52,369 bases of DNA from an uncultured Pseudomonadales bacterium. Lineage in GTDB: Bacteria; Patescibacteriota; Microgenomatia; UBA1400; PJMF01. The stretch lies in NCBI GenBank assembly GCA_964437755.1, contig CAYTIA010000006.1:1-52369 (forward strand). Direction: 5' to 3'. A program made the position numbers and the translations under genes. The first letter of the stretch is position 1, and each line of letters starts with the position of its first letter. Below, piece by piece: positions 5,606-35,000 of this stretch. Under the pieces are notes generated by a model. It saw only the letters and a program-made list of their open reading frames with translations, had not been told where the DNA came from and searched no databases.

Positions 5606-8600
5606 TTATTTAGCTTTTCTCATCAATCCTCCTGTAGATTTTTTATCCCCAACCCCCCTCATTAACATTGATCTATAACTATTCCTTATCATTACTCTTT
5701 CATCATCGGAAATTCCTCTTCCCTGAAGGTAAATTGACTCAAGAGCCTGCATCGCTGACCTCCCACCCTTTCTCTCAACCACATCAAGGGCTAAAGCTAA
5801 ATCAGGTATTGATCCAACATATCCACTATTTTCATGATCAGTAACCAAAGCAAGATAACTGTAAGCTAACTGGATAAAGGTATTTTCACCCCCACGATTC
5901 TCTATTTGAAGCAAAAGAAGTTTTTTTTGAGCTGGAGTTAGGTGAGTTGCTCTATAAAAAGTCAGTGGCAGCTCATCAATCACATCTGAAGGTAAATACT
6001 TTACAACAGCCATTACTCTTTCAAATTCACGATCAGAAAAACATCTTTCCCTAATAGAACCAAGGAGTGCTGATGAAATAACAGAATATCTATAAAGACG
6101 GAGCTCAATTATTTTATTCATTATTAATATTGTTTCAATTTCTGAAAAAATATTGCCACTTATCCCAGAAATTAAACGAGCAAAACAACTAGGCGCACTT
6201 TCAAGACCATTTAAATTATCCACGGAAAAAAGCTTAAGAAAAAGAACCAAGGGTATCTTTCTTAATAAGCCCTGTGAAAATAAAGTTGCTAATTCATAAA
6301 GATCATCATAATCAGCAACTTTTAAGTATTGAAGAAAAATTACTAAAGCTAATTCATTATTAATTGGAATCAAGTCTGATTTTCTCAAAAGAACGAAAAA
6401 TATGAGTCTGTCACCATTCAACAACAGAATATTAATCACTTCTTCTAGATATTCACTTGAATAATGTGAATCGTTAATTCTTTCAGCCAACAACAGAAGC
6501 GAATCTCTTGTACCGTAACGACTAATAAAAAATAAAACTTCTTCAGGAGGAACAATTGAGATACTGCCCTCAATAAATAAATCTGTTAAGTAATAACATT
6601 GTCGACTGTCTCCAACTATTTTGAAAATATTCCACAATCTTAGTTTAGTTTTATCATCAACTACATTAGTTGAGATAGCTGTCAAACATCTCGATGAAGT
6701 TTTTGCTCCACCATGCTCTTGAATAATTGAGTAAACGTTTTCCAAATCATGGGGATTAATTGCTTTTTTTTCTAGAGCAACGATTAATGCTGCTGAGCTC
6801 TCATCTCCAGCTATTAAAGCAACAGTCTCAAGAACTTCTTGCGAGCATCCTTTGTCAGATTGATTTTTAATTAATGATGCAGCAGCTTCATCATTACCAA
6901 TATCAGAAATAATGGAAAGTATTCGCGAAACTTCTTCATCAGTTTCTGATAATGAATCCAGATTTGAAGCTAGCATTTTAGCTATTCCTGAATTACCTCT
7001 TTTCCTAGCAAGTTTTAAAATCGTCGCTTTCCTAGATAAATATTGATGTTTGTTTTCAATTAGATTATTCAAAGCAAGAAGAGCTGTTTTTGGTCCCCCA
7101 ATTGTTAAAGCTATATCCAAAACTTCTTCTCGATCTACTTTCAATAACCTCATTTTTACTTCAGAAGTCTCTTCAGCCAGATCAAGCAATGCAAGCGCCG
7201 TTCTGTCTCCCCCAACTTTTCTAGCGATAGTTAAAACATCAACTGTTGAAACATTTTGATACTGACCCGTACACATATTTTCAACCAATGGGGCAGTAGC
7301 GTTATCATCTCCGTATTCACCTATACTTTCTACAAAAATAGCTATTTCCTCTCTTTCAACAGTTGGTTCACATAAATACGCAGCTAGCTTTATTGAAGCA
7401 GACGGAGATGAAGCAATCTTAAAAATTCTCCTTGCAATAATCCTGGCTTCCCCAGTGATCATTTTATCTACATAAGCACCCGCAAGTTTCATCAAAGTAT
7501 AAGTATCAGTCGATGTAAATTTTTTTCTAAGCTTATCATCATTAGCAATTTTGTTTTCTAAAAATGATAATATCAACTCTTGAACACTTTCGGGAAAAGG
7601 ATTACTGTTAAATAGCTTACTAACCAATCCTTTGATTGCTTCAATATGACCAATCTTACAAATTACACCTGCAATTGCTAATGAATCTTGGTTAGAAGGA
7701 CTTAACACTTCCAACAATATTGAAGCTGATTCATCACCTCCAATTTTTTCAATTATAGGTAATACTTCCAGCCCTACTCTCCTATCAACAAAGTCGCTTG
7801 CCAATACGTTTCCAGCTGTTTCTCCCCCAAATGTCTCAATTATCCATAAATATTTATCTTTTTCTTCATCTGTATCCTTAAATTGTTTTGAGGATAATTC
7901 AATTGCCAACTGCGTTGTTAGTTGTCCTCTCACAACTTTTGCTTCAAATAGCTTGGACTCTGGAAAAGAGTTTGATATTGATTCAAGAATTTCATCCATT
8001 CCCACATTAGAAAACATATCTGAAACCTCAAGCATATTAAATGAAGATAGAGAAATTGGATTATCTAACACCATTAAAGCAGCTAAGCGCCCCTCTGGCG
8101 TATCAGTTTCACAAATTAAATATCCAAATACTAATTGCTGCCAAGAAAGAGGTGCTTCTGGATGAGTTAAAAGTAATTTCCTGTGTTCCTTTTGGCTGAG
8201 ATGATAATAGAGAGTAATCAAATTTGAAATGTTAATTGGATCAAGTCTTTGAAACCGATCCATACGAGGTATTGTTAAGCCCCTTACTTCCCACGTATAG
8301 ACACGTACAGCTGACCTGATCGGAGTTTGATTATTTACAACAACCTCTATTCCAGGAAGCTCGGGAGCTTTTTTATGGTCTCCTTGATCTAAATGAATGT
8401 GCAAACCTTCAGGACTAGCTCTGTCAAAAAACATAGCTAAATTACCCAATTGAGCAACATAATCAACTCCATATATTAAATCATCATCTAGTTTTCTCAA
8501 TTCAAGAGTATCGCCCATATCCCTGCCTGCCATAAAACCAGGACAGTCAGTTTTTCTAGATTCATCTCCATACTCAATTTCTAGACCAACCTTTCTTGGT

Positions 8601-9760
8601 TTAATCTCTAACCATGATTCCGCAATTACTAATCCTTGAACTGAGTCAGCCAATTCTTGATATTTATCATAAAGCTCTTGCTCTGATACAGAAATTTCAG
8701 CCAAAAGCTTGTTTCTTCTTGACTCCTGTAACTGAATCCATGCTGAATCCTTACCCTTTGATTTAGCTAGTTGAGCTGATAACTGTAAAGCTAGTGGTCT
8801 TCGCAAATCTCCAAATCTATCCATAATCTTCAACGTTTCTTCACACTGATCATCAGATAATTCAGAGTACATTAAAATACCATATAGAAAATTTCTTGTT
8901 TTAATGGAGTTCTTTCTGGATTGAAGGAGGTTGATAATCTGCTCATGTAACCCCCTTATCTCTGGATATCTATAACCAACATCTATTTCTTCTTCTAGAT
9001 TTTTTTTGTACCATCTCTCTCTATAAAAACTTAAAATTTCTGTATAACCAATTAATAAACTCTGCACTGCATCTTCATTAGAAAAAACAGTTGGTTGACC
9101 TATAAGTTCATGAACATCAGTCCAGATCCTCTCCATTAAGCATAGAGGGCGTTCATATATTTCCAAATCTTGATCAAAAAACGTGTGTAGGATTTTTCTC
9201 TGTTTTGAAGGTCTCGCTTCTTCCCAACTTAACTCTTCAATATTACCCTCTATTTCATGTTTTTTTTGAAAATAAAAAAGTAAAAACCTTGCTGGAGCAT
9301 GAATTAACCTAACAATATCTGAAGGAGTTAATTCTGCCATTCTCTCACCCTCTTCAATTCTTAAATCTGGAGGAATCAGCGTTTTATCTGAATCTTCAGA
9401 CTTCCTTTCTGCAATCTTTCTTTGATAAAAAGCATTTGGATTTGTAAGAAGCTCTCTTTGTTCAGCTAAGTTTAACCCTAGAGTAAAATCATTATTAATT
9501 TCTGGATGAGCATCTGATAAAGGAACAACAATAGTTTTTTCTGGCTTTTCGACTACCACGAATCCTGCTTGATGCATTACCGCAGCCATCCCTGCAAATT
9601 GTTTTGGTACATCTAACTTTGGAGAAACAACTACAGTAGCTTCTTCTTCTCTAATTGGAGGTTTTCCATCTGCCGACCACAAATTGCCACCAAATTCACG
9701 AGCTATTTGCTCAGTTACAACTCCTTCTCTTATTGCTCGCTCAAGTCTTTGATCACTCAT
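5606..9760 (-). CDS. 1384-aa protein: amidoligase/COOH-NH2-ligase-like domain plus HEAT-like repeat solenoid
   Basis: GLEIE, TLELR, GLHIH and WEVRG motifs at about aa 389-495; recurring G-[GDN]-x-x-[AT] helix pairs about every 31-34 aa from about aa 650 to the C-terminus. Confidence 0.7.
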   Translation of the reverse strand: MSDQRLERAIREGVVTEQIAREFGGNLWSADGKPPIREEEATVVVSPKLDVPKQFAGMAAVMHQAGFVVVEKPEKTIVVPLSDAHPEINNDFTLGLNLAEQRELLTNPNAFYQRKIAERKSEDSDKTLIPPDLRIEEGERMAELTPSDIVRLIHAPARFLLFYFQKKHEIEGNIEELSWEEARPSKQRKILHTFFDQDLEIYERPLCLMERIWTDVHELIGQPTVFSNEDAVQSLLIGYTEILSFYRERWYKKNLEEEIDVGYRYPEIRGLHEQIINLLQSRKNSIKTRNFLYGILMYSELSDDQCEETLKIMDRFGDLRRPLALQLSAQLAKSKGKDSAWIQLQESRRNKLLAEISVSEQELYDKYQELADSVQGLVIAESWLEIKPRKVGLEIEYGDESRKTDCPGFMAGRDMGDTLELRKLDDDLIYGVDYVAQLGNLAMFFDRASPEGLHIHLDQGDHKKAPELPGIEVVVNNQTPIRSAVRVYTWEVRGLTIPRMDRFQRLDPINISNLITLYYHLSQKEHRKLLLTHPEAPLSWQQLVFGYLICETDTPEGRLAALMVLDNPISLSSFNMLEVSDMFSNVGMDEILESISNSFPESKLFEAKVVRGQLTTQLAIELSSKQFKDTDEEKDKYLWIIETFGGETAGNVLASDFVDRRVGLEVLPIIEKIGGDESASILLEVLSPSNQDSLAIAGVICKIGHIEAIKGLVSKLFNSNPFPESVQELILSFLENKIANDDKLRKKFTSTDTYTLMKLAGAYVDKMITGEARIIARRIFKIASSPSASIKLAAYLCEPTVEREEIAIFVESIGEYGDDNATAPLVENMCTGQYQNVSTVDVLTIARKVGGDRTALALLDLAEETSEVKMRLLKVDREEVLDIALTIGGPKTALLALNNLIENKHQYLSRKATILKLARKRGNSGIAKMLASNLDSLSETDEEVSRILSIISDIGNDEAAASLIKNQSDKGCSQEVLETVALIAGDESSAALIVALEKKAINPHDLENVYSIIQEHGGAKTSSRCLTAISTNVVDDKTKLRLWNIFKIVGDSRQCYYLTDLFIEGSISIVPPEEVLFFISRYGTRDSLLLLAERINDSHYSSEYLEEVINILLLNGDRLIFFVLLRKSDLIPINNELALVIFLQYLKVADYDDLYELATLFSQGLLRKIPLVLFLKLFSVDNLNGLESAPSCFARLISGISGNIFSEIETILIMNKIIELRLYRYSVISSALLGSIRERCFSDREFERVMAVVKYLPSDVIDELPLTFYRATHLTPAQKKLLLLQIENRGGENTFIQLAYSYLALVTDHENSGYVGSIPDLALALDVVERKGGRSAMQALESIYLQGRGISDDERVMIRNSYRSMLMRGVGDKKSTGGLMRKAK

Positions 9761-9768
9761 TTTCTTGA

Positions 9769-10461
9769 CTAATACCTTTCCTCAAATAACTTTATTTCAC
9801 CATTTTCAATTAATAAATATGAAGCATAACCATACATAATACAGCCAGAATTGGCATAGTGATTTTGATTGTCAATCTCAGCATAATGGGTATCAGCTCC
9901 AATTAACCACTTCTGGTTTTTTCTACTTAGCACTGCTTCCTTCATGAGCTCATTACTCTTTTTTGCAAAAGAAGATTTCTTCATTATTCCTGGAATAACT
10001 AGATATCCTATTTTTTCTAACAAATTCATTAATTTTCTTAAAAAGATAACAATCATTAGAGATTCTTGAGATAGCAATAACTCTCGAAATTTGCTTTCTA
10101 ACATCCCTCTTTTATTAATCAATAATTCGTACCCGTGGATAATTTCAAGTTCCTTGTTTCCCAAGTTAATTTGACACATTTTTCCAAAACCTTTACAAAA
10201 AAGTTTAGCTCTATCATCAATCATATTTAAACTATCATGATTTCCTAGCACATAGAATGTATTTTTTTCTTTTAAGAGTTTGAAAAGTTTTGACCATTTC
10301 GAGGTAAGAAATTGGTCAAATGTACAAAACCAGCTATCCCAGAAATCTCCATTAATAATTACTCTGTCTGCTCGAGCAATAATTGAATGTAAATACTGAT
10401 ACTTTTTTTGATCAAATTTATGAGTCAGATGGGTATCAGAAAATACTAAAATTCTCATCAT
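9769..10461 (-). CDS. Calcineurin-like metallophosphoesterase
   Basis: SDTH, NGDFWD, GNHD, IIHG, DTH and NSG motifs. Confidence 0.85.
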   Translation of the reverse strand: MMRILVFSDTHLTHKFDQKKYQYLHSIIARADRVIINGDFWDSWFCTFDQFLTSKWSKLFKLLKEKNTFYVLGNHDSLNMIDDRAKLFCKGFGKMCQINLGNKELEIIHGYELLINKRGMLESKFRELLLSQESLMIVIFLRKLMNLLEKIGYLVIPGIMKKSSFAKKSNELMKEAVLSRKNQKWLIGADTHYAEIDNQNHYANSGCIMYGYASYLLIENGEIKLFEERY

Positions 10462-10544
10462 TAATTAATTCTAAACTATTTCATTATCAAATAATTAGTG
10501 ATATTGTATATCTAGTAAACCAATACTCTCTAGCTTCGCTAATA

Positions 10545-11819
10545 ATGACGGAGTTATATCCCCCAAACATAAAAGAAATTCGCAAGAATCAGTTTATTTT
10601 CAAGGAAATTCCACTAAACAATGGATATTATGCTGTAATACTGTTACCCGATTCTGATCCGGGTAAATTATCAATCCCACAACTAACTAATTTTAATTTT
10701 CCTACAGTATCCGGATCTCTAGAAACAACCTTAATTCTAGGTCCAAAAGAAACAAGTAAAGCTAAAATTACCGGTGATTTTGTGGTTTTGGTTGTAATTA
10801 TGAATAAACAACATCAAGCAATAGCAGCAATTCCAGTTGTCCAGGATGGTTTGTCATCAGGAGAATCTGAAGCATATCAGCAAATATTTAAAAGTGTTCT
10901 TCATTCAGCTTGGGATATAAATTTAAGACCTTTTTTTGTTAAAAATCCGCAATTAACCGATTTTTTCTATTCACTTGATGCAGACTCACTCGCTTCAGCC
11001 ATTGCTAGAGACTTCTGGACAAATAATGGCAATTTATTACAAACAATCCTAAATGGTTATCTTGATTCTCTTGAATTAATCGGCAATAAGTGCGATCCTG
11101 ACAAAGTAATAAAAACTATTACTCAACTGCAGTCACAAATCGTTTATGCAAGAGCAATGCATTCAAGACAAATCTTGTCTGCTTTTCATAAATATGAACA
11201 GTGGAAACCAATCTGGGGTGATGCAATTATGGCTTTTTCAGTAATGCATTTTGCACGATCTTTGCAAGAAGAAAATCTTCGCCTAACCAGCTGTCATAGC
11301 GCAAGACCTACCGCTGATTGTTTTCAAGCCATTGAAACAAATATTTCAGGGCAAGGTTTGGTTAGTAATGCACTCACCGTTGACACAAATGCACGCCTTG
11401 AACAATTATTCTTAGATTTGCTTGAGCAGGGATTATTTGAAGATCCAGAAAAAGCACGAAGGTTTTATTTAGAGCATTTATATAGTTATAAACCAGGCGG
11501 TTTTTACGCAACAGTAGCTAACCCTGTTCCAAACATGAATATTGGATCTCATCAAATATTAGCCTTATATCAAAAATATGACCTTGAAGTATTATCATTA
11601 TCAAAAACACCAGGGGGTGACTGGCTAAAGAGTGTTAGCATTTCAGATGGAGCCACATTTGTCACTAGAGACCTAAAAAGAAAAGCTGCAACAGAAGAGT
11701 TAATCATAAAAAGAACAGACGAAGCCCATCAATCCCCCGAAGGTTTTATAAATCAAATACTTGCAGGTGGTGCAAGCGATGATTATTCACTCATAGAGGC
11801 AACTAGCATTCATTTGTAA
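10545..11819 (+). CDS. Hypothetical protein; C-terminal half weakly class I methyltransferase-like
   Basis: Long ORF; ATG 10545 avoids overlap with the divergent phosphoesterase; TVD and YKPGG segments. Confidence 0.55.
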   Translation: MTELYPPNIKEIRKNQFIFKEIPLNNGYYAVILLPDSDPGKLSIPQLTNFNFPTVSGSLETTLILGPKETSKAKITGDFVVLVVIMNKQHQAIAAIPVVQDGLSSGESEAYQQIFKSVLHSAWDINLRPFFVKNPQLTDFFYSLDADSLASAIARDFWTNNGNLLQTILNGYLDSLELIGNKCDPDKVIKTITQLQSQIVYARAMHSRQILSAFHKYEQWKPIWGDAIMAFSVMHFARSLQEENLRLTSCHSARPTADCFQAIETNISGQGLVSNALTVDTNARLEQLFLDLLEQGLFEDPEKARRFYLEHLYSYKPGGFYATVANPVPNMNIGSHQILALYQKYDLEVLSLSKTPGGDWLKSVSISDGATFVTRDLKRKAATEELIIKRTDEAHQSPEGFINQILAGGASDDYSLIEATSIHL

Positions 11820-13254: not shown

Positions 13255-13857
13255 TTACCAAATCTTTTGTATCATCTGTTTTAATAAGGAGCTTTTAAGT
13301 TTTTCCTGTTCTTCCAGAAGAAAACTTTTACCAACTTTTGTTAATTCGATCTTTGTGTGACTTGATATTCTCTCAAACTCTTGATAAATAATCATCTCTG
13401 CCCATGAAATAATAGTGGCTTCAAACAATATTGAGGATAAACTTCTCTCATCAAATAATTGTAAGCTTTGATCTTCGATAGTTTTTATTACTCGTAGTAT
13501 TTCTTTCTGAGAGAAATACTTAGAGGCATGATAATATAGAAATCTCTCAATTTTCGATGAAGCTAGCCTTAAACAACCAGAATGATGTCTGAAAGGATTG
13601 TCAAAGTGTGAGTCGGAACTTGTAAACAAGTTAGCACACCCCCAATGTAATCCGTAGGCTGAAGCTAACAATACTTTGGTATCTGAACTTTCTATATTGA
13701 GTTCAGTTGAAAACTTTTTTATTAACTCGATTAGCTTTAAGGTGTGGTTTTTATACAACAAACCATACTTTTTAGAAACAAGATCTCCAAAGATAACTTG
13801 TTTAAGTTTTGATTCAACTTTTGGATGGAGATAAAAATCATTCATCACCATATGCAT
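13255..13857 (-). CDS. Hypothetical protein, degenerate HD-domain-like
   Basis: NHTLKL...VLLASAYGLHWG follows the HD helix pattern, but the HD dyad reads HW. Start may be ATG 13845. Confidence 0.45.
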   Translation of the reverse strand: MHMVMNDFYLHPKVESKLKQVIFGDLVSKKYGLLYKNHTLKLIELIKKFSTELNIESSDTKVLLASAYGLHWGCANLFTSSDSHFDNPFRHHSGCLRLASSKIERFLYYHASKYFSQKEILRVIKTIEDQSLQLFDERSLSSILFEATIISWAEMIIYQEFERISSHTKIELTKVGKSFLLEEQEKLKSSLLKQMIQKIW

Positions 13858-14551
13858 ATAATTCTAAATCAAAATTTGATTCTTCTAAACACAAGGATTG
13901 TTCATCACCATAATCGTAGTCGTCAACTAAATGAATACCTTTTTGAGTTTTAGCCCTTAGATTATCTAATCTAATTCTCTTATCACTCTCATCATACATA
14001 TATTTACGAGCTACTTCATCATACCAGCTCCGAATTCCAAAGAGCCAATCTTTATCAAAAAAACTACTAAGTTCAACCAGCGAGTATCCAAAACGATCAG
14101 AACCATTTAAAAAACCGTCCAACGCTTCTTGAGGATTATTTGTCATTATGCCTAATGTAACTTCAGGAAAAATTGTCTTAATAAGCTTTAGCAGTATTTC
14201 TGCTGCTGGTCTTAAAACCCATATTGAATTACTAACATCACTTAAAGTTTTATCTACATCAAACAAAACCACTTGATTTTCGTCATCAGAACACCAGCTA
14301 ATTACTTTTTCAAGAACCAAATTAATAAACTTAATTTCTTTTCTCATCCAAACATCAGACAATGCTTCTATATCTTCATCTGAAAAAGGTTCACCATTAA
14401 ACCAACCCGTTTGAAAATCCTGATTTTGAGAGAGTTTAATTATAGTTTGGTGAATTCTATCTTTTAGTTCTAAAACTAACTGATCTAAATTTAACTCATT
14501 ACTTCCTTTTTGTTCTGCTAATTTTTGAGAGGTGACTATTAATTCTTCCAT
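13838..14551 (-). CDS. HAD-superfamily-like hypothetical protein
   Basis: VLFDVDKTL (DxD motif I), IMTN (motif II), LVDD (motif IV). Confidence 0.6.
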   Translation of the reverse strand: MEELIVTSQKLAEQKGSNELNLDQLVLELKDRIHQTIIKLSQNQDFQTGWFNGEPFSDEDIEALSDVWMRKEIKFINLVLEKVISWCSDDENQVVLFDVDKTLSDVSNSIWVLRPAAEILLKLIKTIFPEVTLGIMTNNPQEALDGFLNGSDRFGYSLVELSSFFDKDWLFGIRSWYDEVARKYMYDESDKRIRLDNLRAKTQKGIHLVDDYDYGDEQSLCLEESNFDLELYAYGDE

Positions 14552-15690: not shown

Positions 15691-16271
15691 TATCTCATTA
15701 AGTATTTTTTTAGTTTCTCAAGAGCTCTGCTTCGATGGCTTAACTTGTTTTTGACTTTTAATCCAAGCTCTCCAAAAGTTTTTTTATATCCTTCAGGTAT
15801 AAAAATTGGGTCATAACCAAAACCCGCATCACCAGATGATTGCATAGCAATCTCTCCCTCCACTTTTCCCTCAAAATAATGTGTTTGTTGATCATGAGGA
15901 TTATACAAACACACGGTTGTGACAAAGGCCGCTGCTCTGTTTGATTCGTTTTTTAACTTGCTTAAAATACCCCGGTTTCTATCTGCATCTGTCCCCCGTA
16001 GCCATCTTCCAGAAATTATTCCTGGAAAGCCTTCCAAAGCTTCAATAACTAAGCCAGAATCATCAGAAAAAGCTTGAAGATTAGTTTTATCTGCAAAGAA
16101 TTTTGCTTTCAAAAAGGCATTCTCTTTAAAAGTACTACCAGTTTCTTCAAGATCTAAATTTTTTAAATCTATAAAATCAACCAGCGAACACAACTCAAAA
16201 TTTAGATCACCAAATATCTTAAATACTTCCCGAACTTTTCCCTGATTTGCAGAGGCAAATAGAAGCTTCAT
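15687..16271 (-). CDS. rdgB: RdgB/HAM1 non-canonical purine NTP pyrophosphatase
   Basis: SANQGK, ETGSTF.ENA..KA, DDSGL, GFGYDPIF and SHR motifs. Confidence 0.95.
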   Translation of the reverse strand: MKLLFASANQGKVREVFKIFGDLNFELCSLVDFIDLKNLDLEETGSTFKENAFLKAKFFADKTNLQAFSDDSGLVIEALEGFPGIISGRWLRGTDADRNRGILSKLKNESNRAAAFVTTVCLYNPHDQQTHYFEGKVEGEIAMQSSGDAGFGYDPIFIPEGYKKTFGELGLKVKNKLSHRSRALEKLKKYLMRY

Positions 16272-16284
16272 GAGTTGCTAAAAA

Positions 16285-16569
16285 TTATCCCATCCCGCCA
16301 AGTAATCCTCCAAGACCACCGCTCATAGATTGAAGTTTTTTGGCAGCTAGCTGTTGAGATTGAGTAATAGCTTTGTTTAATACCTTAACAGCATCATCGC
16401 TACTAATACCCTGAACTGAGAAATGTTTAATTTTTTGATCACCAGTAATCACTACCACAATATCTCCCTCTTCTACCCTGATTTCTTCAGCTGAAAGCTC
16501 CTTTTGCATCTTTTGAGCTTGTTGTCTAAGCTGATTTAAATTACCGAGAGCTTTTAATGGATTAGCCAT
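16285..16569 (-). CDS. ybaB: YbaB/EbfC nucleoid-associated protein
   Basis: QAQKMQKEL...VVITGDQKI...LNKAITQ pattern; SD GAGG upstream of ATG 16569. Confidence 0.8.
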   Translation of the reverse strand: MANPLKALGNLNQLRQQAQKMQKELSAEEIRVEEGDIVVVITGDQKIKHFSVQGISSDDAVKVLNKAITQSQQLAAKKLQSMSGGLGGLLGGMG

Positions 16570-16666
16570 AAAATTATTCCTCAAACATGTTGTTAATAAT
16601 TGATTAGTATAACATACTACAAACTCACATCGTTAACAAATCACATGGACTAAATATAACAAACTA

Positions 16667-16695
16667 TTGCAAAAATATCCTATAACTGCTAGAAT
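16667..16695 (+). promoter_or_regulatory. Sigma70-like promoter for the two orphan ORFs
   Basis: TTGCAA, 17-bp spacer ending in TGC, then TAGAAT. Confidence 0.55.
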
Positions 16696-16751
16696 TTCTG
16701 TATATTTGTACAATCAAATATGAATAAGTATTATCAATATTTATAACTACT

Positions 16752-17168
16752 ATGAGAAAACCAGAAACTAGATCACCTTCATCAAGATTAGGAGCTGAGG
16801 CAAGACATGTTAAAAAACAAGTTGAAAAAAGAAGAGCTGACAGAGAAGCTGCAGAAACTCAATGTATGACGCTGAATGCAAATCTTGAACTCCAAAAACA
16901 ACTTATCCGTACTAAATATGTCCTTGAACTGGTTGATTCCATCGATGAATTTCCATTATCCTTATTTGTATATGCATATGACACTCAAACAAGAATGCCC
17001 ATGATGCAAGTTGATATGGATTTTGTTAGAGAAATACTTGAAAAAATTAGTAATTCCCCTCATGTAAACGACAGGCTTGCCTTATATAGAAAATTAGGCC
17101 TAATTCTTAAATCTGCTTGCATACAACTCGGAATAGCTTTTCCTTCTCCAGATCAATCTGATCAATAA
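16752..17168 (+). CDS. Hypothetical protein ending DQSDQ
   Basis: 138-aa ORF in the ybaB-dnaX gap. Confidence 0.6.
   Translation: MRKPETRSPSSRLGAEARHVKKQVEKRRADREAAETQCMTLNANLELQKQLIRTKYVLELVDSIDEFPLSLFVYAYDTQTRMPMMQVDMDFVREILEKISNSPHVNDRLALYRKLGLILKSACIQLGIAFPSPDQSDQ
17149..17168 (+). repeat. 20-bp direct repeat, copy 1 (CAGATCAATCTGATCAATAA)
   Basis: Exact match to 18169-18188; includes the stop codon. Confidence 0.9.
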
Positions 17169-17192
17169 TATAAAACAATAATTGAAAAACTT

Positions 17193-18188
17193 ATGGCCAA
17201 CAAACAAGAAACCCAACAAACACCAGAAGATTCTTTACTTTCTCTCATTGAGTTAATAAGTGATTATCTGAACAGCAACGAAGCTTTTAAAAAAAACTCC
17301 GAAAATACGAGTACCCGTATTAGAGATAAAACAAGATCAATAATTCAACTACTAACAATAACATTGAATAAACTTTCTCAAAATGGACACAGGCTTCATT
17401 CAGTTGAAGCAGAATTAAGTCCTTTGATAAGTCAATGTCAATCATACGTATCTCTTAATTTTGATGAATACCAAGACTTTCGACTTCAAGGTATCTACAA
17501 TGAAGTGCGCGTTATTTTATCGACAATCCTTCCTCTTCTTACTAGAGCTTCTTTAGCTCAACCTCAGCAAGAAAATGCTTCACAATCCTTAGGATTTCCC
17601 GCTGAACTTATGCCAATTATCTTAAATTTATTAGCAACTTCAAATGGAGATGAGCTTGTACAAGTATTAAGAGCTTCAAATGAAACTAGCGCAAAACATG
17701 CTGCTCAAGTTGTTGAATTGCGTGAAGAAATTTATGGACTTAAAAGACAAACCTTAAGAAATGAATCTGAAGCCGCAAGAGAAGCAGCTACAAGAGAGGC
17801 TCAGAAACTTACTGAGCAGATTTATGCTCTCCAACGAGAAAAAACTGACTATAAGATAACATTAAGCATTAAGTTAGCAGCTGAAAGAAGAAAAGCCAGA
17901 AGAGAGCTATTTGAAGAAATGGACATTACCATTGTAGTAAATCTTTTAGAAAAATACGATTTATTTATTGCTAATCCAGAGTCAGAAGATACTGATTTGA
18001 TACTTGATACCGCCTTTATTCAAATATTGGCGATGAGAGCTTTTTCACTAAAAACAACTTTAGCAGGTAAACTTAAAGATAAGATTGTAAATCTTGTTAG
18101 AGATACAACAGGTGTTAATTCAATACATGCTCTTTTTGATCAAGCGGAAAAGTGGATTGAAGCCCGTTCAGATCAATCTGATCAATAA
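17193..18188 (+). CDS. Coiled-coil-rich hypothetical protein ending DQSDQ
   Basis: 331-aa ORF; E/A/R/K-rich heptad region in the middle. Confidence 0.7.
   Translation: MANKQETQQTPEDSLLSLIELISDYLNSNEAFKKNSENTSTRIRDKTRSIIQLLTITLNKLSQNGHRLHSVEAELSPLISQCQSYVSLNFDEYQDFRLQGIYNEVRVILSTILPLLTRASLAQPQQENASQSLGFPAELMPIILNLLATSNGDELVQVLRASNETSAKHAAQVVELREEIYGLKRQTLRNESEAAREAATREAQKLTEQIYALQREKTDYKITLSIKLAAERRKARRELFEEMDITIVVNLLEKYDLFIANPESEDTDLILDTAFIQILAMRAFSLKTTLAGKLKDKIVNLVRDTTGVNSIHALFDQAEKWIEARSDQSDQ
18169..18188 (+). repeat. 20-bp direct repeat, copy 2
   Basis: Exact match to 17149-17168, 1020 bp downstream. Confidence 0.9.
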
Positions 18189-18194
18189 ATCAAC

Positions 18195-19814
18195 TTACAT
18201 CAACGCTTCCTCAGCTAAAGTCTCTAAATCTTGGGTACTGGTCGGCACATCAACTACCTCGGCCTCTACTGGCGGTGTACAAAGAGTAAACTTAAAAGCA
18301 ATTTTATCTCCCACTATTATTTGCCCACACTCCTCAATAATCTGTTTTAATTTGGGTTGTTCTAACTGTTCCTGATGGAATCGATAGAAAACCTTAATTG
18401 TTGCTACTCCATTTGGACCAGCCTGAGGTTGTCCTGAGCGCAACAATGCTGCTAGGGTTGAGTTTCTGTCCTCGACCAGCTTTAGAAAATCATGCCAATT
18501 TTCACAAAGATGATTACTTAAAGAGCCTGACACAAGGGAATCTCCTATAACTAGCTCATTTTCACTTCTCTCTACATCAACCACAATTGCTGATGTCTCA
18601 ATTTTTTCTGAGGAAGAGTCTACAGAAATATCTTTGTGCTGTATCTGCTTGGAAGGTTGAAACTGAGTTTTTTTTGGTATTGAATCAGATTTTTCATTTT
18701 TTTTAGAAGATTTTCCTGAATCAGATGAAGAGCTGGAACTACTTCCTTTTGCTTTCTGAATGATAGATAGCAATAAAAGCTCAATCGGTAAAAAGGCGAT
18801 GGGAGAGTTTTGTTGTAAATTTGCAGCATTAAGTTGATTGAGCAAATACTGAGCTACTTTTTGTTCTAGTTGAGCCTCAGCCTTGATCACTCCCAGATTA
18901 ACTAACAACTCATGATGAAGATATTCAAACAATGATTGTATAAAATAGTCTTCGTTAAATTTTCGTTGACGTAAATCATCAAATAAGCTTACCACACCCT
19001 TTTCATCTTTAGCTAAAACTAATTTAAGTAGTTTTTTGACTTCAACAATTGCTGAACCACCAATTAATTTATCTACTTCCGCTAAGTTGACATTTCCAGA
19101 TTGACTGGCAATCTCAGCTAACTTTACCGCATCGCGAAAACTCCCATCCGCTCTTCTGGCAATTTCTAAAAGTGCATCCTCCTCAAAATTTATTTTTTCA
19201 GTTTCTAAAATCTTTTTTAATCGTTGAGTAATCTCGATTGAACTGGCTTTATAGAAAGAAATCAAGTTACACCTAGAAACAATTGTAGCTGGAACTTTAT
19301 GAAGTTCGGTAGTAGCTAGAATAAAAACCACATGAGCTGGTGGCTCCTCTAAAATCTTTAGTAAAGCATTAAATGCCTCATTCGTGAGCATGTGAACTTC
19401 ATCAAGAATATAAACTGAGATACTTCCCTCTTGGGGAGGAATATAGACCCTTTCTCTAAGCTGACGAATATCGTCAATGCCCCGATTACTTGCCGCGTCC
19501 ATCTCTTGCACAACTAACGAATGACCCCGAAAAACTCTTCTAGAAAAATCTGAATTAGGATCTGGCTCAACTAGCTTGGTCTTTTTTTTATTCTCTAAAA
19601 AGAAAATATTGTCTACAGCCTCTAGATTATTCTGATCATTAAGCATCGCTCCAATTATTCTTGAGGCAGATGTTTTACCAGTTCCCTTTGGTCCTGCAAA
19701 TAAAAATGAATGCGGAAAAATTCCAGAATCCATTAACTGCAACAACTGCTGACGCACTTGAGCAAGATCAAGATCGGCAATCTGACGTGGACGGTATTTT
19801 ATAAACCAAGACAT
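18195..19814 (-). CDS. dnaX: DNA polymerase III subunit gamma/tau
   Basis: KYRP, GPKGTGKTS, DAASNRG, DEVHML and ATTE motifs; start MSWFIKYRP at 19814. Confidence 0.95.
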   Translation of the reverse strand: MSWFIKYRPRQIADLDLAQVRQQLLQLMDSGIFPHSFLFAGPKGTGKTSASRIIGAMLNDQNNLEAVDNIFFLENKKKTKLVEPDPNSDFSRRVFRGHSLVVQEMDAASNRGIDDIRQLRERVYIPPQEGSISVYILDEVHMLTNEAFNALLKILEEPPAHVVFILATTELHKVPATIVSRCNLISFYKASSIEITQRLKKILETEKINFEEDALLEIARRADGSFRDAVKLAEIASQSGNVNLAEVDKLIGGSAIVEVKKLLKLVLAKDEKGVVSLFDDLRQRKFNEDYFIQSLFEYLHHELLVNLGVIKAEAQLEQKVAQYLLNQLNAANLQQNSPIAFLPIELLLLSIIQKAKGSSSSSSSDSGKSSKKNEKSDSIPKKTQFQPSKQIQHKDISVDSSSEKIETSAIVVDVERSENELVIGDSLVSGSLSNHLCENWHDFLKLVEDRNSTLAALLRSGQPQAGPNGVATIKVFYRFHQEQLEQPKLKQIIEECGQIIVGDKIAFKFTLCTPPVEAEVVDVPTSTQDLETLAEEALM

Positions 19815-20240: not shown

Positions 20241-20471
20241 TTAAATTACTGCTTGTAAATGTTGTTGAAACTGCGATTGGAGAAGCCTCATTAAAGATTC
20301 GTGATCTCCATTCAACCAATACTCATATGCTTCATCAAAAAAATCAGTTGTTTGCAATTGTGGAGGTAAAGCTAGAAGAAGTTCATATAATACAAGAACG
20401 TCAAGCATCCCGTTTTGAGCTTCCACCTTATGAGGTTCAAAACCAGCCTCTTTTATTTGTGCAACTGACAT
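20241..20471 (-). CDS. Small hypothetical protein
   Basis: 76-aa ORF tightly packed in the operon. Confidence 0.55.
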   Translation of the reverse strand: MSVAQIKEAGFEPHKVEAQNGMLDVLVLYELLLALPPQLQTTDFFDEAYEYWLNGDHESLMRLLQSQFQQHLQAVI

Positions 20472-21418
20472 TATATCTCTCCAAGTTGGTTAATAATTTG
20501 ATTTAAATTAATCACTCCTAATGGCACTTCGTCATTGGGATCATTCACAAATAACAAAAGAACTCTACCACGGGTTTTTGGACTCCAGATTTTACCCTCA
20601 CGAATAATTTCAGGAGATCCACCAAACTGTTTTTTAACCCACATGGCTGGACCGGCATCCCCAACTACGCCAACTACGGCTAGCTGCTCAGCAGGATTAA
20701 TAGCAATCATTTTCCTAAATTTATACCAAGGTTTCAACTCTGCGTGATTACTGTTCCAATCAGACAGATACATTGTCTGAACAGCAAAATAATACTTTTC
20801 CATTAAAACAGCTTTTTGTGTTAACTCACCATCTTGTGTAAACCAACCAAATGCTCCTCTGTTTGGCGCTATACCCGCCTCTTGATATGCGTCATGATCT
20901 TCAAGCTTATCTCCGGGGTACCGAACCAAGTGCTGCTCACCACCCATAATACCAATGGTGTGATTTAAACGCTTTCCTTCTAACTCCGCCTGAACCTCAA
21001 AACCAAGTAAGTCTGATAGCTGCTGTTCAAGATATAGTTCTTCTTCCTTTGGTAAATGCCCTACATCCATATTGACATAACCCACCATTTTACCGATGAT
21101 TTCCTCTAATTCTTGCTGAGTGATTTCTGTAAGAAGCTTATTTCGTTGTTTTTGTTCTAAAACTGAAAGATTCTGCTGAACTTGAGCCTCAACGGGTTGA
21201 GTAATAGCCAGATGAGCTGCTAAAGTAGCGGCTGTTGTAAACTGTTTAGCGAAATCTATTAGCTGAGCTTGAGAAGTGAATTTGTTATCAAGCCAATTAG
21301 CTACGTCAGCATTTTTTTCTCTTAAAGCCTCCTTTGCCATTTGATATCGATCTTGCAACGAAGATGAGACATCATAAAGTAAGTCAGATGGTGATTGGGC
21401 AGTTTTAGTTGGACTCAT
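20471..21418 (-). CDS. Hypothetical protein
   Basis: 315-aa ORF overlapping the gltX stop; globular C-terminal part (VVGDAGPA...KQFGGSPE). Confidence 0.75.
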   Translation of the reverse strand: MSPTKTAQSPSDLLYDVSSSLQDRYQMAKEALREKNADVANWLDNKFTSQAQLIDFAKQFTTAATLAAHLAITQPVEAQVQQNLSVLEQKQRNKLLTEITQQELEEIIGKMVGYVNMDVGHLPKEEELYLEQQLSDLLGFEVQAELEGKRLNHTIGIMGGEQHLVRYPGDKLEDHDAYQEAGIAPNRGAFGWFTQDGELTQKAVLMEKYYFAVQTMYLSDWNSNHAELKPWYKFRKMIAINPAEQLAVVGVVGDAGPAMWVKKQFGGSPEIIREGKIWSPKTRGRVLLLFVNDPNDEVPLGVINLNQIINQLGEI

Positions 21419-22964: not shown

Positions 22965-24047
22965 TTACTCTAACACCAAATATTTTGAGTCTATGGCATG
23001 AACATATCCAAGAAAATCTTCATCGCCAGAAAAAACATAGATTGGTTGAAGATATGGCTGAGTTATAAAATCTTCATAATACCCCAAGACTATCTCTCGA
23101 ATAACAACTTTTTCAAGCTCAGAACCTGAGACAATATATCCTTCTCCTGATTGAAGTTCTTTCCAAGCTTGGGAAATAGGTTTTAATGGATAGGTATGAA
23201 CTGACTCATACTTTGCTGGCTGATAGTGATAATCTAACTGGACAATTCGATCATCATTTTCTAATGCTCCTGAAATTACCGCACTCACAATTCCTGTTTT
23301 TCCTTCTGGGGTGTACATCTCAAGAAAATTATCAACTGGAACTCTATTGATATCCACACGAACAAAGTTTGCATCTGATAAAGATACTGCTGGTAACAGC
23401 TCTCCTGCTAACACCCTAACATAAGAGACTTCACCAGAAGCAGTTGCCACGTCAGCAGGTAGAGAATCGCTTCTTCTTAAATAAGATTTAACTGCCTGAA
23501 CTGCATCATGCTTATCAGGAAGTTTTTTTACCTTAATTAGTTCTGGTCTTGATTGATAGTCAGTAATTAGCGAAAAGTTATAATTGATTAAATTAATCTC
23601 AAATATTGACTCGAGAGGGCTATATTTCATCCAGCGATAGTTGCTGGCATCAAGCAACTCAGGCTCATCAGTAAAACCATATCTATTAGCTATCTTTCTT
23701 GCTTTTTCATCTGCCAATAAACTTGGAGTGGGAATTTCCATCTCAAAAACCTTCGCTCTATCTGGGAACTCTGGCAAACGATTCCGAGCCGTTTCAAGCG
23801 TATATTCTTGAGTACGCTCTTGTATATCTTGTGCAGGAAAAACTATAGCTGGCAACCTTCCAAAACCCACAGTTGGAGGAGGAGGGGGAGGGGGGTTCAT
23901 GGCTTTGTAGTAGTTTACAGCTGCGATAAAAAGCATTCTCAATACTAAATAGGTCACTGTGCCTATTCCAATAAAAAGAAGTGCTTTTCTTCCATAGGAA
24001 GTAGCATCAGATAAAGTTAAACCCGCATTGTTTTTTTGAGTGCTCAT
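22965..24047 (-). CDS. Membrane-anchored hypothetical protein with a poly-Pro linker
   Basis: N-terminal TM helix, PPPPPPP stretch, beta-rich extracytoplasmic domain. Confidence 0.75.
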   Translation of the reverse strand: MSTQKNNAGLTLSDATSYGRKALLFIGIGTVTYLVLRMLFIAAVNYYKAMNPPPPPPPTVGFGRLPAIVFPAQDIQERTQEYTLETARNRLPEFPDRAKVFEMEIPTPSLLADEKARKIANRYGFTDEPELLDASNYRWMKYSPLESIFEINLINYNFSLITDYQSRPELIKVKKLPDKHDAVQAVKSYLRRSDSLPADVATASGEVSYVRVLAGELLPAVSLSDANFVRVDINRVPVDNFLEMYTPEGKTGIVSAVISGALENDDRIVQLDYHYQPAKYESVHTYPLKPISQAWKELQSGEGYIVSGSELEKVVIREIVLGYYEDFITQPYLQPIYVFSGDEDFLGYVHAIDSKYLVLE

Positions 24048-25084: not shown

Positions 25085-26947
25085 CTAACTAAAAGATTCT
25101 ACTGTCGGCTTTTCTAAACGAATAAAATCTTGAGTACTCATTAAAATTGACCTATCTCTTTTCCCTACGTTAAAGGCTATCTCCTTTTGAGCTAATAATG
25201 ATTCATCAAGATAGGTTTTTATCTTTAAAACTGAACCAAAAGGTGGTATTGATCCGATTTGCAAACTCGTTTTCGCCTCAACGGTTTCTTTTGAAGCCAT
25301 AGCTATTTTTGAAGCTCCGACAAACTTTTGGAGCTTTTCGAGATTTGCTCTTTTATCTCCTGGCAACACCAATAAGGCATATTCACCATCTATATCAACC
25401 ACCAAAGCCTTTGCTGACTGTTCAAGAGTAGTTCCCCTTACCTCGGCCGCTTCTTGACTTGTTGTAACGGGTTGATGTACGAAATACCTAAAATTTGCCC
25501 CCAGATCTTTGAGTTTATTGATTATTTGATCATGAACAGAAAGACTGTCTTGATCAGTCACTCCAATACCCAATTCTGCCAGTTGTGCAGAATCAACCTC
25601 ATTGGGAGCATCCATAACCGCCGTTCTGCCTGAAGACGAGGTAGGAAAGGCGATCGTTTCTTTAATTGATTGTTCATTGGCCAACAACATTGCTAAACGA
25701 TCAAAGCCTAGTGCTATACCTCCATGAGGTGGAGTTCCAAGCTGGAAAGCCTCAAGAATATGGCCAATACTGTCTTCGGTTTCTTGATCTGAATAGCCCA
25801 TAATCTTAAAGGTAGATCTAAGAACATCGGGGCGATGAGCTCTTATACTTCCTCCACCAACCTCATAACCATTGCAGACTAAATCATATTGAGCAGTTTT
25901 AATCTGTTCTAAATTTTTTTGGTTGAGATGATCCTCTAAATACTCTTCTTGAGGGGTGCTGAATGGATTATGAGTAAAGGTCCAACCACTTTTACCATCT
26001 TGAACCTCAGCTGCATCTGTCTTATCAACCTTTTTGAAGAAAGGAAAATCAACTACCCAAACAAAAGCTAACACCCCACTCTTTTTCTCTTCTGGAGTAC
26101 GCAAATCAAATTTATCTGCACCATATTTATTAATTGCCTCTTGATAAGGCACAACTGGAAAAGTTTCTTGTTGAAGCACTCCACCAACTTTTTTAACCGC
26201 ATGCTTCACCATCTCTTCAACAAACGCCATCACTTCCTGTTGAGAAACAAAACTCATTTCTAAGTCAAGTTGGGTAAACTCAAATCCTCGATCTGCTCGA
26301 AGGTCTTCATCTCGAATACATTTGGCAAACTGAAAATATCTTTCAAAACCAGCTGTCATAAGCAGCTGTTTATACTGTTGTGGGCTTTGCGGCAAAGCAT
26401 AAAATTTACCTGGTTGAAAACGGGAAGGTACCAAGAAGTCTCTTGCTCCTTCTTTAGTTGACTTAGTTAAAAGTGGAGTTTCAATTTCTACGAAGTCCTT
26501 TTCAAGAAGCTTCTCGCGAAGAGCCTGCCCAAGCTCTGATCTCATTTTAAGATTGTGCTGTAGCCTTGGTCTTCTTAGATCTAGATAACGATACTTTAAT
26601 CGAGGTACTTCATTTATCTCCAAACCATCTCCATCTAAAGAAATTGGTAACTCAGTACAATCGTTGAGTAATTTGTACTGCTCAACCTCAAGCTCCACCT
26701 TGCCTGAATCTAAATCAGGATTAATATAGCGCTCATCTCTTTCTTTCACCTGCCCCGTAACTTCTATCACCGACTCGATTCTCAGTTCTGCCAATTTTTT
26801 AAAACCAACAATCTGGACCACTCCAGATCTATCTCTAAGATCAATAAAAGTAATCTTGCCATGATCACGCTTACTTTCCACCCAGCCTTGGAGTGTTACC
26901 TGTTGCCCTATTTTGGTTGAGATATCTCTTGAAAGTGTTCTTTGCAT
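25085..26947 (-). CDS. aspS: Aspartyl-tRNA synthetase lacking the GAD insertion, fused to a C-terminal YbaK/ProX-family domain
   Basis: RDHG..FIDLRD, YRYLDLRR, LPQSPQ.YKQ, RDEDLRADR and PPHGGIALGFDRL; the last about 150 aa carry SAKAL, GSIPPFG and FNVG YbaK-family motifs. Confidence 0.93.
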   Translation of the reverse strand: MQRTLSRDISTKIGQQVTLQGWVESKRDHGKITFIDLRDRSGVVQIVGFKKLAELRIESVIEVTGQVKERDERYINPDLDSGKVELEVEQYKLLNDCTELPISLDGDGLEINEVPRLKYRYLDLRRPRLQHNLKMRSELGQALREKLLEKDFVEIETPLLTKSTKEGARDFLVPSRFQPGKFYALPQSPQQYKQLLMTAGFERYFQFAKCIRDEDLRADRGFEFTQLDLEMSFVSQQEVMAFVEEMVKHAVKKVGGVLQQETFPVVPYQEAINKYGADKFDLRTPEEKKSGVLAFVWVVDFPFFKKVDKTDAAEVQDGKSGWTFTHNPFSTPQEEYLEDHLNQKNLEQIKTAQYDLVCNGYEVGGGSIRAHRPDVLRSTFKIMGYSDQETEDSIGHILEAFQLGTPPHGGIALGFDRLAMLLANEQSIKETIAFPTSSSGRTAVMDAPNEVDSAQLAELGIGVTDQDSLSVHDQIINKLKDLGANFRYFVHQPVTTSQEAAEVRGTTLEQSAKALVVDIDGEYALLVLPGDKRANLEKLQKFVGASKIAMASKETVEAKTSLQIGSIPPFGSVLKIKTYLDESLLAQKEIAFNVGKRDRSILMSTQDFIRLEKPTVESFS

Positions 26948-33386: not shown

Positions 33387-35000
33387 ATGCTTAAAGACTT
33401 CTTTATAAAAATTGATAAGTTCTTAGATCGCCACACAGGTTTTTTATTGTGCCTGCTGTTACTAATTATCCTCAGAGCCCCAAATTTTTTTGATCCCTAT
33501 TGGTATGGTGATGAAGCAATTTATTTAACCATTGGTCAAAGTATTCGAGCCGGAAAGCAACTCTATGCAGAAATCGTTGATCACAAAACACCAATAATTT
33601 ACTATTTAGCAGCCGTTCCCAATCAGTTTTGGTTTAGAGTTCTCTTAACTGGGTGGATGGTAACGACAACAACTTTTTTTTATGATTTATCTAGAAAAAT
33701 ATTTAATCACAAAAATATTAGTGTTATTGGTACTTTCATTTTTGTTTTACTAACAACACTTCCTTGGCTAGAAGGACACATTCCAAATGGAGAGTTGTTT
33801 GTAATGGGTTTTGTGATAACTGGCCTGTGGATACTCGCAAAGTCACAATATCTTTCTCAAGTACTTGATGATCAACCAATTATTAAATCATTTCATAAAA
33901 AGCAAATCGCTTTTTTAATAATATCTGGATTTTTTTATGGATTGGCGTTTTTAACAAAAGTTCCAGCAATTCTAGATTTTGCAGGATTATTACTCTTAAG
34001 TTGGTTTTTCACAAATTCTAAAGTTCTTAATCAAAGCAATAGCACTAGAAAGAGAAAAATATTTTTCACTAAAAAGAATTTCTTAGCACTTTTTCAATTT
34101 ATTCCCCAATGGATAGTTTTCTTTATTGGGCTGTTAATCCCAGTTATCATCTCGATAATATATTTTGTATCAATTGGAGCAGGCAGTGATTATTTAGAGT
34201 TTGGTTTGTTATACAACCTTCACTATACACAAACCTGGACTCATGATTTTGGATCAGCCTTCGTTAACTCTCTATTCACTCTACCTGTTAAAACGCTGAT
34301 TTTAGCAATATTTATACTACTCTTAACCATTCTTAAGAAGGTATCTCTTAAAGCTAAGTTTTTTACAGGGTGGTATTTACTAACTCTTTACTCTGTTTTA
34401 CTTTCAAATCGACCATACCCACATTACTTTCTTCAAGCAGTGCCACCTTTAGTATTGATGGTTACTTATTTATTAAAACTAGCAATTGATAAACAAAAAA
34501 AAGTTTATGAATTTGTATCTTCTTTCCTACTTTTTATTGTATGTGGCACTCTAACTACACTGATCTTATTTTCACTAAACTTTGGAGTTTATTCAACAAG
34601 AAAATATTATGGTACATTTTTCAAATATGTTAAAGGTAATCTAAATCAAGAGGAGTACTTTCAATCGTTTAACTATTTAATGAGTGATAACTATCAAGTG
34701 GCTAATTATCTCAAATCTCAAAATGAGAAAAAGTTGTTTATTTGGGGTAACAATGCACTACTATACGCACTTAGTGAAACCGTTCCCTCTTCTAGATATA
34801 CCGTAGCTTTTCACATTCTTGATATGAATGCCTTTGATGAAACAATAATGCAGGTAAAAGATGAGGAACCAAATTATATAGTCTTAATGAACAATGCTCC
34901 AACTGAGTTTCCTGAGTTCTATCATTACTTAAGAAGAAATTATGTACCGATCTATTCGTATACTAATATGACACTTTATAAAAGAGTAAATATTCAATAA
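33387..35000 (+). CDS. GT-C (ArnT/PMT-like) glycosyltransferase
   Basis: WYGDEAIY and DHKTP motifs; many TM helices; soluble C-terminal domain. Confidence 0.8.
   Translation: MLKDFFIKIDKFLDRHTGFLLCLLLLIILRAPNFFDPYWYGDEAIYLTIGQSIRAGKQLYAEIVDHKTPIIYYLAAVPNQFWFRVLLTGWMVTTTTFFYDLSRKIFNHKNISVIGTFIFVLLTTLPWLEGHIPNGELFVMGFVITGLWILAKSQYLSQVLDDQPIIKSFHKKQIAFLIISGFFYGLAFLTKVPAILDFAGLLLLSWFFTNSKVLNQSNSTRKRKIFFTKKNFLALFQFIPQWIVFFIGLLIPVIISIIYFVSIGAGSDYLEFGLLYNLHYTQTWTHDFGSAFVNSLFTLPVKTLILAIFILLLTILKKVSLKAKFFTGWYLLTLYSVLLSNRPYPHYFLQAVPPLVLMVTYLLKLAIDKQKKVYEFVSSFLLFIVCGTLTTLILFSLNFGVYSTRKYYGTFFKYVKGNLNQEEYFQSFNYLMSDNYQVANYLKSQNEKKLFIWGNNALLYALSETVPSSRYTVAFHILDMNAFDETIMQVKDEEPNYIVLMNNAPTEFPEFYHYLRRNYVPIYSYTNMTLYKRVNIQ

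Follow-up and report, generated by a model that had tools for sequence, protein, structure and literature searches.

Identical 20-bp ends of two neighbouring orphan genes in an uncultured bacterium: a probably ancestral shared tail, perhaps secondarily homogenised, in a recombining two-gene module

Contig CAYTIA010000006.1 from an uncultured bacterium, analysed here over its whole length of 52,369 nt (the window), contains two neighbouring orphan open reading frames (ORFs), ORF1 and ORF2, that end in the same 20 bp, CAGATCAATCTGATCAATAA. Each copy is read as CA-GAT-CAA-TCT-GAT-CAA-TAA, which comprises the final 2 nt of codon −6, the codons for DQSDQ and the stop. An original prediction made on this DNA had offered two explanations for the repeat: a recombination or target-site duplication bracketing ORF2 as a 1020-bp integron-like cassette, or a shared C-terminal peptide tag. 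Our analysis points to a fairly ordinary origin, with the 20-mer behaving like a short shared motif undergoing concerted evolution. The account that we favour, with somewhat more belief than doubt, is that the two families inherited a similar tail, that the two tails became identical secondarily in the lineage of the window, and that no cassette is involved. The 20-mer would then be a by-product of the shared tail, and therefore neither a recombination site nor a target-site duplication nor a cassette border.

The identity of the two ends is exact, as predicted, and unusual in its local setting. CAGATCAATCTGATCAATAA is present exactly twice, both times on the forward strand, with no third copy in the window when three mismatches are allowed. 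No other exact direct repeat of the window is as long, the runners-up reaching 16 nt, and two matches to it were found in none of 100 dinucleotide-preserving shuffles. Identity is lost sharply at both edges: copy 1 is embedded in ..TTCTC/20-mer/TATAAA and copy 2 in ..CCGTT/20-mer/ATCAAC, the wider contexts being ..CCTTCTC/20-mer/TATAAAAC and ..GCCCGTT/20-mer/ATCAACTT, respectively. Copy 2 ends 6 nt from the stop codon of the convergent gene dnaX. In independent assemblies from other samples (L013 and L014/L027), the two copies recur at the same distance of 1020 bp, which shows the repeat to be real and no assembly artefact. The absence of further similarity between the two proteins, also part of the original prediction, was borne out by BLASTP (E = 0.58) and by hhalign (probability 1.4%). 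The CAGAT/ATCTG dyad and the TGATCA palindrome (17159–17164) pointed out in the same place are likewise present, together with two GATC sites, but they arise because xCA-GAT-CAA-TCT-GAT-CAA is spelled with the common codons of this genome, and all of them are broken in the relatives. The RNA hairpin of the dyad is weak (−3.6 kcal/mol) and in its context no better than shuffles (z = −0.3 to −0.8).

The evidence that carries our interpretation comes from relatives, for which we compared the contigs holding the four ORF2 orthologues (L001/L002/L003, L004, L005 and L006). The order aldolase, Ham1, YbaB, ORF1, ORF2, DnaX, YbeY is found on these contigs, with ORF1 lacking in L006; the synteny ybaB–ORF1–ORF2–dnaX holds in L001–L005, and ORF2 stands at the same place in all relatives. 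Their ORF1 products end in ..PSPDQSEQ, ..PSPDQFEQ or ..PISDQAK, followed by TAA, and their ORF2 products in ..HSIQSDQ, ..RSDQPNQ or, twice, ..RSSQSDQ, followed by TAG. Over nine tails, Gln at −4 is found in all nine, and Gln at −1 and Asp, Glu or Asn at −2 in eight each; the other positions vary. When the two tails of one genome are compared with each other, L001 and L004 show six mismatches each and L005 eight, against none in 20 positions in the window. The window tails differ from their orthologues at two to five positions (ORF1) or three to four (ORF2), so that the tracts of the two genes are closer to each other within the window genome than orthologous tracts are between genomes. As the tails of the relatives are similar but non-identical, we conclude that the similarity is old and that the exact identity is private to the window lineage.

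The direction of the private differences is consistent with this. Relative to L001, the ORF1 tail of the window shows TCC to TCT and GAA to GAT; relative to the majority ORF2 tail, its ORF2 tail shows CGAGT to CAGAT and TAG to TAA. Every one of these six differences increases the likeness of the two tails. The ORF2 tail has accumulated four changes where about one would be expected from the divergence of the adjacent C-terminal domain (window against L001, synonymous divergence dS 0.20, nonsynonymous divergence dN 0.07). One further tail deserves mention: at L005 1977–1994, ORF1 ends ..SDQAK-TAA-TAA, an apparent CAA-to-TAA mutation just before the old TAA, from which the terminal Gln seems dispensable in that orthologue.

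These observations can be brought together as follows. Both families would have possessed a similar disordered tail, approximately [S/P]-x-Q-x-[D/E/N]-Q at the carboxy terminus, before the sampled genomes split. In the window lineage, the tails would have become secondarily identical, ORF1 through GAA to GAT, with TCC to TCT as a probable second change, and ORF2 through CGAGT to CAGAT and TAG to TAA. The mechanism that we prefer is a short templated event, gene-conversion-like or by template switching, between similar tails 1 kb apart, which may have been aided by changes running toward the preferred codons of this AT-rich genome. A templated event is favoured by the convergence of the changes, by the adjacency of three of them (CGAGT to CAGAT) and by the recombination-prone character of the locus. 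Short-tract conversion and template switching are known elsewhere, for example in the homogenisation of tufA and tufB and in templated mutations at quasi-palindromes or direct repeats. The window resembles such concerted evolution in that the copies are identical in one genome while orthologues differ, in its clustered convergent changes and in its recombining locus. It differs in that the tract is 20 nt long, lies in unrelated genes 1 kb apart, falls below the usual homology and changes in mixed directions, with no intermediate seen. As to why the tails should be shared in the first place, they may be left over from a partial 3′-end duplication that accompanied the formation of the pair, or they may be a linear motif through which both proteins contact a common partner.

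Several points weigh against this account. Before the event, the tails would have shared some 8–9 contiguous identical bases between unrelated flanks, which is less homology than strand exchange calls for; RecA-dependent conversion in Escherichia coli usually needs about 20–30 bp, and canonical conversion is for that reason mechanistically awkward. The direction is mixed: one or two sites in ORF1 have come to match ORF2, and four in ORF2 have come to match ORF1, so that two events or patchy repair would be needed. The polarity of the changes is read from at most five sequences and from trees blurred by recombination, and were the window state ancestral, no homogenisation would be required. GC-to-AT transitions toward preferred codons (TCA, TCT and TAA) account for four of the six changes, as expected of mutation bias alone. 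From codon usage by itself, two identical peptides would be encoded identically, across 18 coding and stop bases, with p = 0.026. Where a functional motif is concerned, the tail shows no more conservation than the ORF2 C-terminal domain beside it, and its last Gln is lost in the L005 ORF1. The argument of the original prediction that identity at synonymous positions speaks for an origin at the DNA level is thus reasonable for the last step, the identity of the Ser and stop codons being private to the lineage, but falls short of proof because codon bias alone could give the same result at the probability just quoted.

The same figures support the most serious alternative, one that we nevertheless regard as rather unlikely: coincidence under constraint, in which similar peptides were kept and the few variable sites, each toggling between two or three states, drifted independently, in this one lineage and without a templated event, to the same, mostly preferred codons. 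GAT, CAA and TAA are dominant in this genome (0.82, 0.72 and 0.78 of their respective sets), the transitions run the expected way, and a perfect match among four genomes would be a chance of a few per cent. Against it, TCT (0.26) is not the codon that this genome prefers for Ser, the surplus of changes in the ORF2 tail includes three adjacent ones, every private change is convergent, and the 20-mer exceeds every other repeat in 52 kb. A different route to identity without homogenisation is its retention: a partial duplication or illegitimate recombination would have copied the 3′ end of one gene onto the other, and the relatives, with no function required, would have drifted. Their 6–8 differences per 20–21 nt are about what weakly constrained drift would give at the dS of the module (0.2–1.3), the CAGAT state in ORF2 is common to the window and L004, and the outgroup ORF1 of L005 has xCT like the window. 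We find retention improbable, since a distance tree of the C-terminal domain nests the window next to L001 with L006 most distant, which makes CGAGT and TAG the likelier ancestral states; all other ORF1 tails have GAA or AAA, which makes the GAT of the window derived; and zero changes in 40 nt would have to be accepted on the window branch against six in its sister L001. Less likely still is that ORF1 and ORF2 are diverged tandem paralogues, in which case ORF1 would derive by shortening from the C-terminal half of ORF2, with the tail as the last recognisable trace. Both proteins have a long helix with an Arg-rich motif (KRRADRE and ERRKARRE), followed by a short β element, helices and the tail, and when hhalign is confined to the C-terminal half of ORF2, the basic helices of the two proteins align in 27 columns (p ~0.013–0.02 by column shuffling). 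The putative shared elements are, however, differently spaced, the hhalign probabilities stay at 1.4–2.5%, hidden Markov model scores lie inside those of shuffled controls (2000 shuffles, p = 0.03–0.3), and a global profile alignment is no better than shuffles (p = 0.19–0.33). Apart from the 27-column match, BLASTP, hhalign and hidden Markov models gave no convincing sign of paralogy, which we regard as very unlikely.

The cassette is, in our judgement, largely refuted; a mobile 1020-bp ORF2 unit for which the 20-mers serve as att-like sites or represent a target-site duplication is hardly credible. What speaks for it is that one gene is bracketed by direct repeats, that gene content varies, ORF1 being absent from L006, and that alleles have been exchanged between lineages. 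Yet ORF2 is present at the same place in all five relatives, where the repeats are imperfect (six to eight mismatches); the single difference in gene content concerns ORF1 rather than ORF2, and its borders do not lie at the 20-mers; and the segment that is exchanged and hypervariable is the N-terminal two thirds of ORF2, not the 1020-bp unit. No empty site with a single target copy occurs among the five relatives, all of which carry ORF2 and four of which carry both genes. Neither integrase nor transposase was found among the genes of the window and five related loci (ferritin, SDR, class I aldolase, Ham1, YbaB, DnaX, YbeY, GltX, peptidase S11 and orphans), searches with ORF2 gave nothing above noise among transposases, Pfam families or PHROGs, and the DNA immediately internal to the two copies (TATAAAACAA... 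and ...GAAGCCCGTT) shows no inverted repetition. An integron has the tyrosine recombinase IntI with attI and Pc beside its array, and its attC site, found at each cassette border, is an imperfect palindrome of 57–141 bp with R″/L″ and L′/R′ boxes and a GTTRRRY core; no attC-like structure was found, the 20 nt being coding sequence without GTTRRRY. Direct repeats that close two successive genes of one strand at their 3′ termini, behind a single promoter, do recall integron cassettes, but IntI and attC are lacking, and the repeats, which are moreover coding, do not delimit cassettes that are gained or lost as units. The original prediction had suggested looking for an excised junction or a 1020-bp circle and for the 20-mer elsewhere. 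Neither junction nor circle turned up among contigs assembled from four runs or when metagenomes and genomes were scanned; in the four sludge runs, no joints between the copies were found over 16000–19000, in assembler contigs at 3–6x in which rare forms would be missed. In 596 Gb of genome contigs, the 20-mer has seven single matches, all in unrelated metagenome-assembled genomes and in another frame (QINLIN..), two of them, of Desulfobulbales type, in the same conserved gene context and the remainder by chance; the scan of metagenome contigs returned parental contexts of the same species and chance matches only. Several metagenome-assembled genomes of Desulfobulbales type carry it at L015 5398–5417, L019 2065–2084 and L029 8925–8944, inside one conserved gene that reads it in the other frame (..PDIQINLINKD..), which has no bearing on the present finding. 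Among the observations that the original prediction itself had named as telling against it, the motif is thus found nowhere else in a comparable setting and no single-copy allele is seen as far as the data reach, while diverged paralogy of the two proteins is not what we find.

A peptide function for the tail, the other explanation originally put forward, fares better in part. A related tail, predicted to be disordered, is present in every relative, and in the models of the window proteins made with AlphaFold (AF2) the predicted local distance difference test score (pLDDT) falls below 50 for the last four to five residues of both, the ORF1 model being poor overall. Conservation is, on the other hand, loose, and none of 383 open frames, in about 100 kb of the clade, ends in Q-x-[DEN]-Q or [DE]Q, bar one antisense frame. 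A search of the literature for the peptide DQSDQ gave irrelevant matches only. Shared C-terminal motifs are well known, as in the cargo-loading peptides of encapsulins, the C-terminal tail of SSB, and secretion or degradation signals. The present tails resemble these in being short, disordered terminal peptides on two unrelated neighbours and on their orthologues; their sequence matches none of them, only the Gln at −4 is invariant in both families, and the last residue is dispensable in one orthologue. It is conceivable, though we consider it doubtful, that the tail is a docking or sorting peptide that takes both products of a rapidly diversifying conflict or host-interaction module to one partner, or else that the 20-mers serve as anchors for the swapping of whole ORF2 alleles between cells, in the manner of vls. 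On the former view, selection keeping the tails matched, a co-evolution of the two, would explain why all private changes converge. In Borrelia, the vlsE cassette region has 17-bp repeats around it, and a hypervariable, exchanged domain beside conserved segments with short direct repeats nearby is common to both cases. Here, however, the repeats bracket a whole gene rather than its variable domain, no silent ORF2 copies are present in the DNA examined, and exchange takes place between lineages rather than within one genome.

Whatever the origin of the 20-mer, the module in which it lies has evolved in a striking manner. The flanking genes are 76–99% identical at the amino acid level between the window and its relatives, with dN/dS 0.01–0.18 and dS 0.4–2.4; across the ORF1–ORF2 module, dN/dS is 0.3–0.74. 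The N-terminal domain of ORF2 (compared over window 17193–17717, L004 6001–6540, L005 2016–2550, L006 6001–6540 and the corresponding part of L001) falls into four allele types with 31–42% amino acid identity, and its phylogeny is incongruent with that of the flanks. Thus, L005 and L006 have flanks 95–100% identical (dS 0.02–0.23) and N-terminal domains that look unrelated (dS 1.36), and L001 and L004 have N-terminal domains 89% identical (dS 0.13) between flanks that are saturated (dS 1.4–1.8). This indicates that alleles of the N-terminal domain have been exchanged between lineages. The swapped segment has its borders near 17170 and 17800–17860. Within ORF2, some 95 nt (17806–17900) are near-identical to L004 only, with two differences, and the neighbouring stretches are closest to L001, so that the gene itself is a recombination mosaic. 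The body of ORF1 (16853–17140) has dS 0.13–0.21 among the window, L001 and L004, and the ORF2 C-terminal domain (17868–18165) has dS 0.2–0.74, below that of most adjacent housekeeping genes. The orthologues are young, as the low dS of the module attests, and these values suggest a recent spread of segments across lineages. The incongruent dS and the mosaic therefore point to an operon shuffled by recombination between lineages and evolving quickly. In L006 (5816–6000, against window 16696–17172), the promoter is joined almost directly to the ORF1–ORF2 spacer, one border following ..TTCTGTATAT within the promoter region and the other preceding AAAACAATAATT within the spacer. Since the sister genome L005 has ORF1, its absence from L006 is most simply read as a deletion.

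The features of the locus are collected in Table 1. ORF1 and ORF2 form a putative operon with its own conserved promoter, in reverse orientation between ybaB and dnaX. The −35 element, spacer and −10 element are nearly invariant across five genomes, the −10 element being TAGAAT or TAAAAT, and in L006 the same promoter directly precedes ORF2. YbaB is 95–99% identical between genomes, and DnaX, whose gene is convergent with ORF2, 76–88% between the window and its relatives. In the window, ORF1 and ORF2 share a reading frame, in which one TAA is followed by 24 nt free of stops before ORF2 begins (17166–17192). A read-through fusion of the two was considered and rejected: in L001 and L005 the genes are also in frame, but a second stop intervenes, and in L004 the frames differ. 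The shared frame in the window is probably a coincidence.

Table 1. Coordinates of the repeat, the two orphan genes and their flanks in the window
Feature	Position	Strand	Basis and remarks
ybaB, nucleoid-associated protein, 94 aa, left flank	16285–16569	−	Pfam PF02575 on orthologues
Predicted promoter, sigma-70-type, TTGCAA-17 nt-(TG)cTAGAAT, extended −10	16667–16695	+	Promoter scan; divergent from ybaB
ORF1, 138 aa, ends ..PSPDQSDQ	16752–17168	+	ORF list
Repeat copy 1	17149–17168	+	3′ end of ORF1 including TAA; relatives have CAGATCAATCCGAACAATAA or ..TTCGAACAATAA
ORF2, 331 aa, ends ..ARSDQSDQ	17193–18188	+	ORF list
ORF2 hypervariable N-terminal domain (aa 1–175)	17193–17717	+	Sliding-window identity, alignment, per-region identity, dN/dS
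ORF2 conserved C-terminal domain (aa 226–331; AERRKARRELFEE..., FIQILAMRA, FDQAEKWIE) and tail	17868–18188	+	Alignment, 66–88% aa identity
Repeat copy 2	18169–18188	+	3′ end of ORF2 including TAA; relatives have CGAGTCAATCTGATCAATAG, CGATTCAATCTGATCAATAG or CAGATCAACCTAATCAATAG
dnaX, DNA polymerase III gamma/tau, 539 aa, right flank	18195–19814	−	Pfam DNA_pol3_delta2, AAA and DNAX_ATPase_lid on orthologues

Both proteins are orphans in the strict sense. Among 5.8 billion protein clusters, ORF1 has three orthologues and ORF2 four, and a profile of ORF2 run against 1.84 billion representatives recovered its own cluster and one coiled-coil match only. Neither a family nor a fold could be assigned to the ORFs from Pfam, PHROGs, PADLOC, PDB sequences or a Foldseek comparison with the PDB, in which ORF2 has no match below E = 0.4; ORF1 in particular has no match in Pfam, PHROG, PADLOC or PDB, and two scans of viral contigs gave no viral relatives. 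The AF2 model of ORF2 (pLDDT 74) is all-helical, in that an N-terminal bundle is followed by a single helix some 90 residues long and by a small C-terminal domain, likewise of helices. That of ORF1 is poor (pLDDT 60) and shows a long basic N-terminal helix, a β-hairpin and two helices.

The host genome has about 35% GC, uses code 11 and mixes housekeeping genes with many ORFs that have no Pfam match, and the window contains no rRNA gene; the window lineage and its relatives come from sludge, digester and bioreactor metagenomes. In the window, orphan ORFs are interspersed with genes for MetRS, GltX, DnaG, a CoaD–CoaE fusion and an ADP-forming acetyl-CoA synthetase. An ORF of 1384 aa at 5606–9760 (reverse strand) is without any Pfam match, as are other sizeable ORFs at 10383–11819, 13255–14551, 20471–21418, 22965–24047, 33387–35000 and 50519–51985. 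The genome is thus orphan-rich, and its lineage is likely to be a poorly studied one. Three further observations concern the housekeeping genes. In dnaX, the Ser/Lys-rich linker (SSSSSSSDSGKSSKK..., 18466–18715, reverse strand) forms a second local peak of divergence, with 45–55% nucleotide identity to L004, while the rest of the gene is conserved. At L005 3030–4675, on a contig of an NCBI metagenome-assembled genome, dnaX is called as two ORFs of 148 and 400 aa, the cause being a frameshift, a nonsense mutation or else faulty assembly. At 25085–26947 (reverse strand), a class II tRNA synthetase of the Asp/Asn/Lys type (tRNA-synt_2 and an OB anticodon domain) is fused to a C-terminal tRNA_edit domain of the YbaK/ProX type, an unusual arrangement.

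A short shared tail, combined with codon bias or a small templated event, can mimic a cassette border or an att site, and this calls for caution in scans that rely on repeats. More noteworthy than the 20-mer is the presence, inside an otherwise conserved dnaX–ybaB cluster, of a two-gene operon restricted to a few genomes from sludge and digesters. In protein sequence, the N-terminal domain of ORF2 evolves about 10 times faster than the neighbouring genes, and its alleles are exchanged across lineages. Such a pattern is typical of genes engaged in conflict or in the recognition of a partner or host, a role that ORF1 and ORF2 may also have. If the tail proves to be functional, it would offer an experimental handle on an orphan system of an uncultured bacterium.

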